Below, piece after piece: positions 3,750-43,151 of a stretch of 60,035 nucleotides of DNA. The notes beneath the pieces are model-generated. The model worked only from the letters and a program-made list of their open reading frames with translations, was not told the DNA's origin and did not search any database. Made by a program: the position numbers and the translations under genes. The first letter of the stretch is position 1. The number at the start of each line of letters is the position of its first letter. The stretch comes from Elusimicrobiota bacterium (lineage in GTDB: Bacteria > Elusimicrobiota > UBA8919): the NCBI GenBank assembly GCA_043802785.1, contig JAZDKR010000010.1:1-60035 (forward strand), read 5' to 3'.

Positions 3750-4565
3750 CTATAAAATAAAAAATTTTATGTAGTAGTAAAAAACTGGAGCGGCAAAAAT
3801 AAAACTGTCAAGTTTGTCCAAAATACCACCATGGTTTTTAAGCATTGTGGACGAGTCCTTTACTCCTGCCGAGCGTTTTATTAATGATTCAGCAAGATCA
3901 CCAAACTGTGCCGATATGCCTATTAAAATACCAAGCGAAAAAACATCTGCTGGTTTTAAAAAACCAATGAAAAATAATTTCGCAATAAAAACGGTAATTA
4001 CTGACGCAAAAATGGACGCGATTGCCCCTTCTACAGATTTTTTTGGACTGATTACAGAAAGCTGTCGAGAACCATATACCGAGCCAAAAAAGTATGCAGC
4101 AGAATCAGCAATCCAGACGGTTACAAGAAGAAGTACGGTAAATTTAAAACCGTCGGGACGGAAATCCCTTATCAGCAAAAAATGTCCGGGAAGCCAGCCA
4201 AGATAAATAATTCCAAGAAATGTAATAGCCAACGACGGTATTGCAGTGCGAATGTCATATCTAATTATTTCATAAACAAAAAGAAGTAAAACCATAAGTG
4301 TAAAAACAAGTGCCGTTGCATCGTTAGAAACAACGGAAGCAATTTTGGAGCCGTTGAAAAATATTGAACTAAGTATCAAAAGTATGGATATATTTCCGAA
4401 GGTTTTCCGAGGAACAAATCCCATTTTCGCTACTAATAACCAAAATTCATAAGCAGATAAAAAACAAATCCCGCAGATAAAAATAAGAAACGGAATATAC
4501 CCGAGATATACGGCAACGAAAACAACCGGAATTAAAATCAAAGCAATAAAAATTCTGTTAAACAT
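3750..4565 (-). CDS. cdsA: Phosphatidate cytidylyltransferase
   Basis: Multi-TM protein with DSAAYFFG, ISPKKSVEG and GDLAESLIKR-AGVKDS-HGGILDKLDS; located between uppS and dxr. Confidence 0.95.
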   Translation of the reverse strand: MFNRIFIALILIPVVFVAVYLGYIPFLIFICGICFLSAYEFWLLVAKMGFVPRKTFGNISILLILSSIFFNGSKIASVVSNDATALVFTLMVLLLFVYEIIRYDIRTAIPSLAITFLGIIYLGWLPGHFLLIRDFRPDGFKFTVLLLVTVWIADSAAYFFGSVYGSRQLSVISPKKSVEGAIASIFASVITVFIAKLFFIGFLKPADVFSLGILIGISAQFGDLAESLIKRSAGVKDSSTMLKNHGGILDKLDSFIFAAPVFYYYIKFFIL

Positions 4566-40482: not shown

Positions 40483-41792
40483 TTATCTTTCTAATCCAAA
40501 AGTTCTTTCTAATCCAAAAGTGGATTCTTTTTCGTTTTGTATATTTTTTATTGTTCTTCTCTTTAATTCATCAGGTACACTTTTTAGAATTTCTTCATAG
40601 TCATTGACCAATGCCTCGTCCGACTTGTCGAACAATGCCACATAACAAGTACTAGATGCTCGCGTCCAAAAACTTTTTGCGACTTGGTGTTCCGTGTCTG
40701 TTATGTCGATTTTTCTGTCAAGATTAAAGAAATTGACAATATCTTCCAATATCGTGCTGACTAATTCCTTAAAATTTTCTTTGTGCTCGGCAAGATAAAT
40801 AATTCTCTCAGTTATAGTTTTCAAAGTCCCGTGATGATTGGTTTCTCGATTATATTCTTGAGTGATGTATCCAAGTGCTTTTTTATTGATGTAAACCTGT
40901 GAATCAAACTCAATACCAAATGAGTCACCCTGCTTGCTAACAGAAAATGGGATGTAAAAGATTGGGTATTTGGCATTATTGAAAGTAATATCGCAAAAAT
41001 AAAGATAGAATTCTTGCTTGTCTAAAATAGTTCTGTTGCGTTCCATTTCGTAAATTTCTACGAATAAATCACCTACCTGAAAATTTTCAAAAAACGAAAC
41101 GATATTTGATTTAGCATCTTTAACCTCAAAAATATCTTTAAGCTGCTTTGCAACATCAACCTTTGCTTCTGCTAAAATCAGTTTTATAACTTCGGAAATT
41201 TTATTTTCAAGCAAGGTCCCGAGAACGGCAGTCAATTCTTCCTCCATGAGGTAAATTTCATTCTCGTCGCCCAAATTCAAATTTTCTAATGGCTTTTCAA
41301 GGTTACTGATAAATGGCAATACCAGTTCGGTTTTGATTACTTTTGCCGCAGATTCAAGAGAGGTTGTAAGAGCTTGATCATATTCTTTCAGATGAAGTGC
41401 AGAATATTTTTCAATCTCATTGGCTATCTGGTCGATTATCTTTGAAATCTGCTCGGTGTTAATTTTATCTAATTGCAGTTTAATAAGATCGAGGAGATTC
41501 TTGGGTATGTTTGTCCGGTAAATCCCTTTTTGAATTGTGTCGAGAGCATTTTTATCAAAACCGTGAGTGATTGCTTCCCATACGAGTGCGTTAAACGAGG
41601 GATATTTATTGAGATTAATGCCGATGAGAAGATTTGAACTATTGCGAAATTGAATGCTTCTTTTTGGATTACGCCGCTTATGGAAATCTGTTTCCAAGAG
41701 AAGTCCATAAAATACTTGGCGACTTCTTTAATGAATGCCAAACCGTCTTTGCGATCTATTTTCTTACTTTTTTTATTTGTAGAGGATGACAT
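40483..41792 (-). pseudogene. Frameshifted and truncated N-terminal part of a large AAA/helicase-like protein
   Basis: The ORF from 41792 (MSSSTNKK...KYFMDF) continues after a +2 TC slip at about 41698-41703 into LETDFHKRR (ORF 40483-41697). The tail ends in an 18-bp tandem duplication (TFGLER x2). The helicase assignment is inference. Confidence 0.65.
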
Positions 41793-41796
41793 AATG

Positions 41797-41970
41797 TTAT
41801 TTCATCAAATTATCAAGCGAAACGCTGAGGGCTTTGGCGATTTTGCTTGTCGTGTCCATTGTCGGGCTCTGTATTGCGCCCGACTCCAATTTCACGACCG
41901 TGTTGTAGGAAATATCAGCCAATTTAAAAAGCCTGTCTGGAGACAAGCCCTTTAATTTGTTTCCTCGCAA
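41797..41970 (-). CDS. XRE-family helix-turn-helix regulator, probably N-terminally truncated
   Basis: Manual translation ...KGLSPDRLFKLADISYNTVVKLESGAIQSPTMDTTSKIAKALSVSLDNLMK*, a Cro/C1-type HTH; the stop is 4 nt before the next ATG. Confidence 0.75.
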   Translation of the reverse strand: MRGNKLKGLSPDRLFKLADISYNTVVKLESGAIQSPTMDTTSKIAKALSVSLDNLMK

Positions 41971-42040
41971 ATCTGCCCGCCGAAGCGAGGGGCTAAGCCC
42001 CGAGCGAGGCGACTAATTCAATATGGTGGAGGTGGCGGGA

Positions 42041-42694
42041 CACATAACCCACTTATTACTAAGTGGCGTGGACTATTTCTTCACCCCGATTATTTATCGG
42101 GGGATCGGCGTATTATAGAAGGCATAAATTTACCGCTGATTAAGTTTTCTGATTTCCCTAACAAGTTTCATCTTCTTTTCCAACATTTCTTTTGAATATC
42201 TTCCATTTCTCGGTGTTACTTTTTTATACTTGTTGAGAATTAGCAGCGCTTGCGGCTTTTTAATAATCAGAAAATCCTTAATATTACCGAGAACTTCCAT
42301 AACTCTGCCGGCTCTGTTGATTTGCCATCCATATGACAAACTATGGGTTGGCTTGCGAGGATATTTTTTCACAATGCTTCCGCATTTTAACTTTCTTTTC
42401 ACCCATTTCAAAACTTTCAAATTATTGTTTGAAATACTCAGTTGAGGTTGCGGAAACTGACCTTTGTTTGACACGGTCAATGTTATTGATCCTTCGCCAT
42501 CAATGAGACCAGCCAGATATGCTTTCTCCGTAATGACCAGCGGTATCACCTCCTATCTTTCCGTTAACCGGAAAAGTCTCTGCAGGGCTTTCACCCCTCA
42601 AGATTACCCGTCCCGATATGCCATCGGGATTAGGGCTTCCTTGATGTAAGCCGATTTTTGTCATTCGAATCGCTTCGGAAGTCGACTCTTTTGA
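42041..42694 (-). mobile_element. Group I intron (IA-like, 654 nt) in the tmRNA T-loop
   Basis: P1 TCGAT/GTCGA with a U-G pair at the 5' splice site; P3 ATCGGC/GCCGAT; P7 GAGACT/ATAGTCC; P8 CCCCGAT/ATCGGGG; P9 CCACTTA-GTAA-TAAGTGG; terminal G at 42041. Confidence 0.92.
42130..42549 (-). CDS. Single-motif LAGLIDADG homing endonuclease (intron-encoded)
   Basis: AYLAGLIDGEGSI motif; about 139 aa; located inside the intron between P7 and P3'. Confidence 0.93.
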   Translation of the reverse strand: MIPLVITEKAYLAGLIDGEGSITLTVSNKGQFPQPQLSISNNNLKVLKWVKRKLKCGSIVKKYPRKPTHSLSYGWQINRAGRVMEVLGNIKDFLIIKKPQALLILNKYKKVTPRNGRYSKEMLEKKMKLVREIRKLNQR

Positions 42695-43043
42695 ATCGAA
42701 CCCGCGTCCGAAAATAACGCCTGATGGTTACTACAGACATAGTCGGTGTTTTGTTTCACATTAAACCGCTTCCGCCGACAGAATCTGTTTAACGCTATCT
42801 GCTGAATTTCGCCATCGGTAACGCAGCATCACCGACAACTATTCTGCTTTATAACACCTTGCCCCAATCTCGCAGAAAAAAGATTGGGAAGGCGGCTTAA
42901 CGCGGTTTAAGCGTAAGCAACTACCGGTGAATAATTGGCAGTTATTTTGTGTAACCGATTTTTAACGCAGCCGTTCGGTTAACTGCGGTCTGCAACACAT
43001 CAAACAAATATTCCCGTCGAAACCTGTTCACCCCCATAAAGGC

Positions 43044-43151
43044 AGGGTGTAGGGGTTAGGGTGTAGGGTGTAGCGGTTGATGTAAATCAACGATTTTAGC
43101 GAATTTACATTCGCCGCTACTAATCCCCCTATCCCCTATCCCCTATCCCCT
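43044..43151. repeat. GGGTGTA / CCCCTAT heptamer element with a 70-bp core
   Basis: 43082-43151 is identical to 49311-49380. Confidence 0.85.

Follow-up and report, generated by a model that had tools for sequence, protein, structure and literature searches.

The window analysed here, a stretch of 60,035 nucleotides of contig JAZDKR010000010.1 from the metagenome-assembled genome (MAG) GCA_043802785.1 of an Elusimicrobiota bacterium, carries on its minus strand smpB followed directly by ssrA, the gene for transfer-messenger RNA (tmRNA). The ssrA gene is interrupted in its T-loop by a group I intron, and the intron encloses an intact open reading frame (ORF) for a homing endonuclease of the LAGLIDADG family (HEG, a term used below for gene and protein alike). 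The original prediction, made from the letters of the window, had placed an insert of 654 nt at 42041-42694, with the tmRNA halting at 42695 and a 17-nt exon after the insert; sequence reading has shown these coordinates to be exact. All features are collected in Table 1.

Exon 1 closes with the letters ...GCGGGTTCGAT (in a longer form ...GGACGCGGGTTCGAT). Exon 2 begins with nucleotide 7 of the T-loop (U42040), continues with CCCGC (3' strand of the T-stem) and CACCUCC (3' strand of the acceptor), and ends in the discriminator A followed by CCA. The characteristic G3•U70 acceptor pair was read from the sequence as G43033•U42030, and together with the T arm, the CCA end, the tag reading frame and the adjoining SmpB gene it places the locus among the tmRNAs. 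It had been foreseen that standard tmRNA finders would probably miss or truncate such a gene, and both failures were noticed: the Rfam tmRNA model RF00023 aligns to 43027..42692 (minus strand, 139.7 bits) only as far as the T-loop, leaving out the 3' T-stem and acceptor strand, and ARAGORN calls no tmRNA in the window or in the unspliced precursor. After removal of 42694..42041 in silico, ARAGORN 1.2.41 calls a 358-nt tmRNA with the tag ANYSPVVAYA. No second tmRNA was detected in the host genome (1.56 Mb in 93 contigs, 78% complete), as it should be if the split gene is the functional copy. The interrupted gene is the only detectable ssrA of this genome and it is of the intron form.

Table 1. 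Features of the interrupted ssrA locus, in the direction of transcription
Feature	Position	Strand	Remarks
smpB, 148 aa	43143..43589	minus	Pfam SmpB PF01668, E 6.5e-57; directly upstream of ssrA
ssrA, whole interrupted gene	43035..42024	minus	directly after smpB
ssrA exon 1	42695..43035	minus	Rfam RF00023, 139.7 bits; ARAGORN on spliced form
ssrA acceptor 5' strand GGGGGTG	43035..43029	minus	start of exon 1
ssrA tag ORF GCC..TAA, ANYSPVVAYA	42939..42907	minus	in exon 1, where pseudoknots are also present
ssrA T-stem 5' strand GCGGG	42705..42701	minus	exon 1
ssrA T-loop nt 1-6, UUCGAU	42700..42695	minus	end of exon 1
Group I intron, 654 nt, starts TCAAAAG, ends TTATGTG	42041..42694	minus	T-loop internucleotide position 7; omega-G 42041
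P1 hairpin	42682..42699	minus	exon UCGAU + intron UC (42699..42693) with GAGUCGA (42688..42682), loop AAAA
P2 hairpin, GNRA loop GCGA	42663..42680	minus	7/7 pairs with compensatory changes
P3 5' strand AUCGGC	42650..42655	minus	partner GCCGAU 42109..42104; compensatory in 4/6 pairs
P4-P6 domain	42584..42644	minus	helices 89-100% paired, compensatory changes in each
P4 UCAAGG/UCUUGA	42644..42639 / 42603..42598	minus	
P5	42636..42633 / 42609..42606	minus	
P5a hairpin	42629..42611	minus	
P6 hairpin	42597..42584	minus	
P7 5' strand G(A)GACU, bulged A	42575..42580	minus	pairs with AGUCC 42074..42070; 100% paired; pseudoknot with P3, guanosine-binding helix
P7.1 hairpin UUUCCG-GUUAA-CGGAAA	42558..42574	minus	compensatory in 5/5 pairs
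P7.2 5' strand AUAGGAGG	42549..42556	minus	pairs with CCUUCUAU 42122..42115; 92% paired, 3 compensatory pairs
LAGLIDADG HEG ORF, in P7.2 terminal loop	42130..42549	minus	stop TAA 42132..42130; 139 aa from GTG 42549
P3 3' strand GCCGAU	42104..42109	minus	same helix count as P3 5' strand
P8 hairpin CCCCGAU-AAAUA-AUCGGGG	42084..42102	minus	covariation count; Rfam alignment
J8/7 UGAAGAAAU + P7 3' strand AGUCC	42070..42083	minus	agrees with Rfam consensus UgAAGAUAUAGUCu; invariant across the nine-intron alignment
P9.0, AC/GU	42069..42068 with 42043..42042	minus	covaries AC/GU, AU/AU, GU/AC
P9 hairpin, GUAA loop	42066..42049	minus	5 compensatory pairs
omega-G, terminal G of intron	42041	minus	
ssrA exon 2, 17 nt, TCCCGCCACCTCCACCA	42040..42024	minus	same as 3' ends of intron-less relatives

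The group I fold is evidenced by covariation. Homologous introns were collected through their ORF, and nine of them were aligned after the ORF had been trimmed from its loop. On this alignment RNAalifold independently predicted the T stem, P1, P2, P3, P4, P5, P5a, P6, P7.1, P7.2, P8 and P9; P7 was added as a pseudoknot and one 3' helix was cut back to a 2-bp P9.0 before pairs were counted. Over 14 helices and nine introns, 94.3% of 663 cells are paired, against 38-51% when the partners are slid by one to three columns. Both sides have changed in a compensatory manner in 44 of the 74 pairs, and none of 500 shuffles attained any of the observed measures. The ORF-trimmed intron of the window gives the same helices when it is folded alone (minimum free energy -97.6 kcal/mol, z = -6.2). 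All elements named in the original prediction, that is P1 with its U-G pair, P3, P7, P8, the GNRA-capped P9, the terminal G and the YLAGLIDGEG reading frame, were recovered, and the helices are supported by covariation in the nine introns.

The core has the P3-P8 and P4-P6 domains, the P7 pseudoknot with its bulged nucleotide and a consensus J8/7, which together with the P7 3' strand is the most conserved core segment. The wobble pair at the splice site, U42695•G42686 in P1, is invariant in 9/9 introns, and the outermost pair of P1 is U-A or, along with the T-loop variant UGCGAU, G-C. The forms of P3 are AUCGGC/GCCGAU, CCUGGC/GCCAGG, CCUAGC/GCUAGG, AUCAGC/GCUGAU and CCCGGC/GCCGGG; P7 is closed by a G-C pair in eight introns and by U-A in the ninth. 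An alternative P3 (GGAAG/CUUUUCC, with a long P2) was dropped, as it is AUCGGC/GCCGAU and the GNRA-capped P2 that covary, and a splice register with exon 1 ending in UUCGAUU was discarded, as it would deprive the intron of its terminal G. Two extra covarying hairpins, P7.1 and P7.2, lie between the 5' strand of P7 and the 3' strand of P3, and due to this position the intron is placed as IA-like; HEG-less homologues close P7.2 with a short loop. The tmRNA intron of Clostridium botulinum has reportedly been assigned to subgroup IA3. The insert is a group I intron of the P7.1/P7.2 (IA-like) type.

The Rfam model Intron_gpI (RF00028) matches only the 3' core of the insert (P8, J8/7, P7' and P9; 42204..42049) with 35.9 bits (E 9.4e-8 per genome), which is the top match of the genome to that model. 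A second, weak match at C27:6396-6615 of the same genome (L053 497..716; 25.8 bits, E 1e-4 per genome) may be due to chance or may mark another split gene; in the roughly 500 nt that flank it to the left and to the right, ARAGORN found no tRNA.

The ORF in the terminal loop of P7.2 has an intact frame with the motif YLAGLIDGEG and scores 27.6 bits against Pfam LAGLIDADG_1 (PF00961; cut-off 23.1). Among PDB sequences phmmer found I-Vdi141I (3e54, E 1e-5), I-MsoI and I-CreI. An AlphaFold2 model built from 45 homologues (mean pLDDT 95.6) presents the element order alpha-beta-beta-alpha-beta-beta-alpha by DSSP, and Foldseek matched it to I-MsoI, I-CvuI, I-CreI and I-Vdi141I at TM 0.70-0.78. The family alignment of the 45 homologues shows no variation at G14, D17, G18, E19, G20 and K97, and E19 is the terminal acid of the motif. 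With a motif helix ending in an acid, this fold and a size within about 130-170 aa, the protein is, as modelled, an I-CreI-like single-motif LAGLIDADG enzyme, which presumably acts as a homodimer.

A locus on a JGI metagenome contig (L019) encodes a HEG 93% identical to that of the window. The two genes differ by 26.8 synonymous and 9.2 non-synonymous changes (synonymous divergence dS 0.45, non-synonymous divergence dN 0.031, dN/dS 0.07), and the ribozyme core with its flanks has 7 differences in 251 nt. Because dN/dS is 0.07 and only 7 of 251 nucleotides have changed at a dS of 0.45, both the HEG protein and the intron RNA are judged to be under purifying selection.

The Shine-Dalgarno sequence of the HEG, AGGAGG (42554..42549), lies in the 5' strand of P7.2, and the probable start is CTG 42540, a weak start codon 8 nt past the Shine-Dalgarno sequence, giving 136 aa. 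The corresponding codon is CTG also in L019 and L027 and TTG in L021, L024 and L026, and in L023 an ATG lies nearby. The start GTG 42549 was judged unlikely as it overlaps the Shine-Dalgarno sequence, and due to this overlap expression of the HEG may be weak.

The HEG protein has 238 relatives. In seven loci fetched by exact look-up, a HEG relative directly follows a tmRNA truncated in its T-loop, with the exon ends GGGT(T/G)CGAT before the intron and TCCC after its final G. These loci come from the JGI contig L019, an ENA metagenome assembly (L021), a Logan run assembly (L027), two Elusimicrobiota MAGs (L022, L023), a member of Margulisiibacteriota (L024) and a MAG labelled Pseudomonadota (L026). 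The order smpB - exon 1 - intron - HEG - exon 2 is repeated in L019, and the layout of the window is also found in 8 of the 10 intron-borne loci of a later census of species-representative genomes. The survey of relatives for intron-less alleles, proposed with the original prediction, yielded eight, in which the uninterrupted GGACGCGGGTTCGATTCCCGCCACCTCCA is identical to exon 1 joined to exon 2; six belong to the same family (G003, G005, G006, G008, G009 and G010) and two to the same phylum. BLAST of the intron against 60 relatives gave no second copy, and in the only genome of the same genus (G001) neither a tmRNA nor a P7' motif could be detected. The T arm DNA is an inverted repeat with the half-sites GCGGGTTC / GAATCCCGC, an arrangement that would suit a homodimeric enzyme. 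The intact ORF, the dN/dS of 0.07 and the intron-less alleles in relatives suggest that the intron may be active or may have been so recently, as had been predicted.

We infer the following course for splicing, cleavage specificity, homing and regulation. The smpB-ssrA region would be transcribed and the intron would then fold. Exogenous guanosine bound at P7 would attack after U42695, which is held in P1 by the U•G pair with the internal guide GUCGA, and omega-G 42041, placed by P9.0, would then take the G site. Ligation of the exons would remake the 7-nt T-loop UUCGAUU, the T stem, the acceptor stem with G3•U70 and the CCA, giving a tmRNA of 358 nt. The predicted junction in the spliced RNA is ...GGGUUCGAU/UCCCGCC..., that is, ...GGACGCGGGUUCGAU joined to UCCCGCCACCUCCACCA. 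Spliced tmRNA with the tag ANYSPVVAYA would work together with SmpB. Homing would be driven by cleavage by the HEG, whose expected target is the T-arm DNA of intron-less alleles, a pseudo-palindrome (GCGGGTTCGAT^TCCCGC). Since the Shine-Dalgarno sequence of the HEG is the 5' strand of P7.2, folding of the ribozyme and translation of the HEG should compete.

As a whole, it is considered highly probable that the locus is an intron-form ssrA whose T-loop is split after nucleotide 6 by a HEG-bearing group I intron. Some observations weigh against this. The window's P2 contains two mismatches, and the genome is 78% complete, so that a second ssrA might exist elsewhere. No ATG, GTG or TTG stands where the homologues start but a CTG, and the sole in-frame start of the common code, GTG 42549, overlaps the Shine-Dalgarno sequence. 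Furthermore, the covariance-model check that had been proposed succeeded for exon 1 with the tmRNA model and in part for the intron model, where 35.9 bits for the 3' core is below the gathering score of 50. The Rfam group I seed contains no bacterial sequences (bioRxiv 10.1101/2020.01.27.920355), and in the window a 420-nt ORF splits the intron core. A HEG-less homologue (L055; G355:C154:~4220-4470), about 240 nt long and inserted at the identical T-loop position of ssrA in another family of the same phylum, scores 50.6 bits, above the gathering score, which suggests that the ORF insertion is the chief reason why the window intron falls below the threshold. The genome of this homologue was the only real additional intron case given by a degenerate T-loop/P1 pattern, which matched 175 of the 401 genomes of the phylum and, with many control matches, was otherwise too noisy to be of use.

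Among other explanations, the one that survives best assumes that the intron splices but its ORF is no longer a homing endonuclease, being silent or a maturase, and that the intron is a fixed vertical passenger. The CTG start shared by the window, L019 and L027, where other homologues have TTG or a nearby ATG, would fit a silent ORF, as would the pairing of the Shine-Dalgarno sequence in P7.2. LAGLIDADG maturases exist and the bI3 maturase (2ab5) is among the matches to the HEG; the intron is common to the window and L019 and so has been inherited vertically for some time (dS 0.45). The dN/dS of 0.07 speaks against a silent ORF, as the protein is still selected, although so low a value is also expected under selection as a maturase. 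Neither the motif acid E19 nor K97 varies among the 45 homologues, the top structural matches are active homodimeric endonucleases, and the family is patchily distributed over several phyla at one site, as homing predicts. We therefore regard loss of the endonuclease function as unlikely.

It is much less probable still that the interrupted ssrA is a pseudogene and that a working copy is hidden in the 22% of the genome missing from the assembly. The incompleteness of a MAG of 93 contigs leaves room for such a copy, and the lack of any tmRNA in the same-genus G001 means that ssrA regions may assemble or bin poorly. A decaying gene is, however, hard to reconcile with a ribozyme core that differs from L019 at 7 of 251 positions while the ORF has reached a dS of 0.45, with every helix intact and with exons identical to those of functional relatives, next to an intact smpB and with no second tmRNA detected. 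An assembly or binning artefact, in which a chimeric contig would join a tmRNA fragment to foreign intron DNA, is hardly credible even for a metagenome-assembled genome and with misbinned tmRNA contigs reported in the 2025 survey (PMC11915505), given that the independent contig L019 repeats the gene order with a HEG 93% identical, that Elusimicrobiota-like genes stand on both sides in the 60-kb contig and that exon 2 completes exon 1 exactly.

In the surroundings of the intron-form ssrA, Elusimicrobiota-like genes occur on both flanks, and for a neighbouring PfkB kinase the nearest named homologues are from Elusimicrobiota (78-83% identity). Between the smpB stop and the 5' end of ssrA (43040-43150) there is a run of three G-rich GGGGATA heptamers, an inverted repeat GTAGCGG...CCGCTAC and a C-rich CACCCTA-like run, which looks like one of the genome's repetitive extragenic palindromic (REP)-like elements. 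Right after the 3' end of the tmRNA lies a 57-aa XRE-type helix-turn-helix gene (41797-41970, minus; PF01381, E 1.2e-8), followed at 40483-41792 (minus) by overlapping frames of 107 and 404 aa with no Pfam match, which appear to be one broken gene. No integrase or repeated exon 2 was seen beyond the 3' end of ssrA in the stretch that was read.

An intron-form tmRNA is said to have been described by Williams in 2002 in Clostridium botulinum. The original prediction relied on this precedent, and rightly so in that T-loop group I introns are known, but the precedent is far wider: the 2025 survey comprises 883 unique intron-form tmRNA sequences from 21 phyla, all interrupted in the T-loop and mostly at internucleotide position 7 (PMC11915505). 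For membership a sequence had to reach 150 bits with the tmRNA_intron covariance model of that survey, whose Supplementary Table 2 lists, for the intron form at position 7, five instances in Elusimicrobiota and two in Margulisbacteria. LAGLIDADG HEGs were present in 36 of the 883 (4.1%), counting HEGs inside introns only; of the 23 HEGs in the founding set 19 were in the P7.1 region and 4 after P9 (PMC11915505). The window has the marks of this class, namely a T-loop group I intron, the -1 U•G pair in P1, an omega-G and exons that restore the T-loop. It resembles the surveyed tmRNAs (PMC11915505) in host gene, position 7, the -1 U paired with G, the omega-G, the HEG in the P7.1/P7.2 region and the phylum, and it shows no difference in kind from them, the window copy merely belonging to the HEG-bearing minority. 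Precedent exists for the host gene and the site, for the type of intron, for the family and the position of the HEG, and for the phylum.

The protein shares with I-CreI, I-MsoI, I-CvuI and I-Vdi141I a length of about 135-165 aa, a single LAGLIDADG helix and the alpha-beta-beta-alpha-beta-beta-alpha core. The conserved motif acid, a lysine aligned near K98 of I-CreI and the pseudo-palindromic target (predicted in the case of the window) are further likenesses to the I-CreI group. Unlike this group, with which identity is only 18-26% and whose group I introns lie in rRNA genes, the window element resides in ssrA. Group I introns of bacterial tRNA genes (cyanobacterial tRNA-Leu and tRNA-fMet, Azoarcus tRNA-Ile; see also bioRxiv 10.1101/2020.01.27.920355) are similar in that they occupy the tRNA-like domain of a stable RNA and have a short P1 and a weak P10, however they sit in the anticodon loop and are devoid of P7.1/P7.2, whereas the window intron is in the T-loop and possesses both. 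The phage T4 td intron with I-TevI and the cyanophage psbA intron with the free-standing F-CphI ("collaborative homing") offer two parallels: HEG expression is tied to an RNA structure that hides the Shine-Dalgarno sequence, and the HEG may be found within the intron or free-standing beside its target gene. In both of these phage systems the HEGs are of the GIY-YIG family, the host genes encode proteins and the genomes are those of phages, unlike in the system discussed here.

Relatives of the HEG also occur outside introns. A scan of genome contigs with the single HEG sequence gave no relatives, the patterns being too specific; the scan of species-representative genomes with the HEG alignment gave 413, and a census was made of the loci of the best 80 of them (L066, from Clostridium lundense, is among the loci recovered). 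The HEG is intron-borne in 10 of these 80 loci. It is convergent and downstream of an intron-containing ssrA in 43 (41 after removal of two doubtful exon-2 calls), a layout to which L083 and L087, clipped by contig ends, also conform. In three loci it lies downstream on the same strand as an intron-containing ssrA and in two (L061, L062) on the same strand as an intron-less one, and in about 15 no tmRNA T-arm could be recognised within 1.6 kb. Four strict motif checks were all passed by 30 of the 46 intron cases, and only two cases look like false exon-2 calls; in these 30 the HEG stands at a median distance of 57 nt (range 35-147) from the CCA end.

A HEG-less T-loop intron and a free-standing HEG, usually convergent and 35-147 nt past the CCA end, are combined in at least 40 species (Clostridium, Bacillaceae, Tissierella and others). 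In Bacillus dakarensis, Virgibacillus and a Clostridiaceae MAG the HEG is convergent past an ssrA with a HEG-less intron of 266-300 nt at the same site. In L020, whose tmRNA is intron-less and has a divergent T-loop, a HEG 76% identical to that of the window starts about 28 nt past the CCA, and no intron remnant was found after this tmRNA. A tree of 80 HEGs, the window's included, consists of two clades (SH-aLRT 100 each). The clade of 15 contains 12 intron-borne HEGs, that of the window included, and three beside an intron-less ssrA, from Elusimicrobiota, Omnitrophota, WOR-1 and similar MAGs; the clade of 65 is mostly from Bacillota, with 40 free-standing convergent HEGs and 22 unclassifiable ones. 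Identical HEG proteins in MAGs labelled Anaerovorax odorimutans and Clostridium thermobutyricum (L074/L075), whose isolate or bin names follow the same pattern, and a Clostridia-type HEG/ssrA locus in "Lutibacter sp. B2" of Bacteroidota (L099) probably reflect mistakes in binning or labelling and not transfer.

A literature search found no paper linking free-standing HEGs to ssrA. The pairing of a free-standing HEG with a HEG-less intron at ssrA resembles the collaborative homing of psbA and may serve as a lead. It is tentatively proposed, with rather less than even confidence and from the gene layouts of the census, that ssrA may be the site of a wider mobile system in two parts, of which the intron-borne HEG of the window could represent the "fused" state.

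For the organism itself, it had been claimed that ribosome rescue depends on self-splicing. The claim holds for trans-translation and does not extend to rescue as a whole: another contig of the same genome (G000:C2:11527-11943; L054 228..644) encodes a 138-aa protein with an RF-1 domain, the GGQ motif and a Lys/Arg-rich C-terminal tail (82.9 bits), the architecture of ArfB, and because of this gene rescue is probably not solely tmRNA-dependent. The only detectable ssrA is missed or truncated by standard finders, so that such a genome would be scored as lacking trans-translation.

The window element is a further HEG-bearing example of a catalogued class, with its secondary structure fully mapped. 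If the two-part system is real, the "HEG-less" tmRNA introns (about 96% in the survey PMC11915505) may be mobilised by a flanking free-standing endonuclease, and free-standing HEGs could explain the spread of the HEG-less introns of Bacillota. One HEG lineage would then offer a natural series of intron-borne and free-standing states, and it is here that the wider value of the finding may lie.

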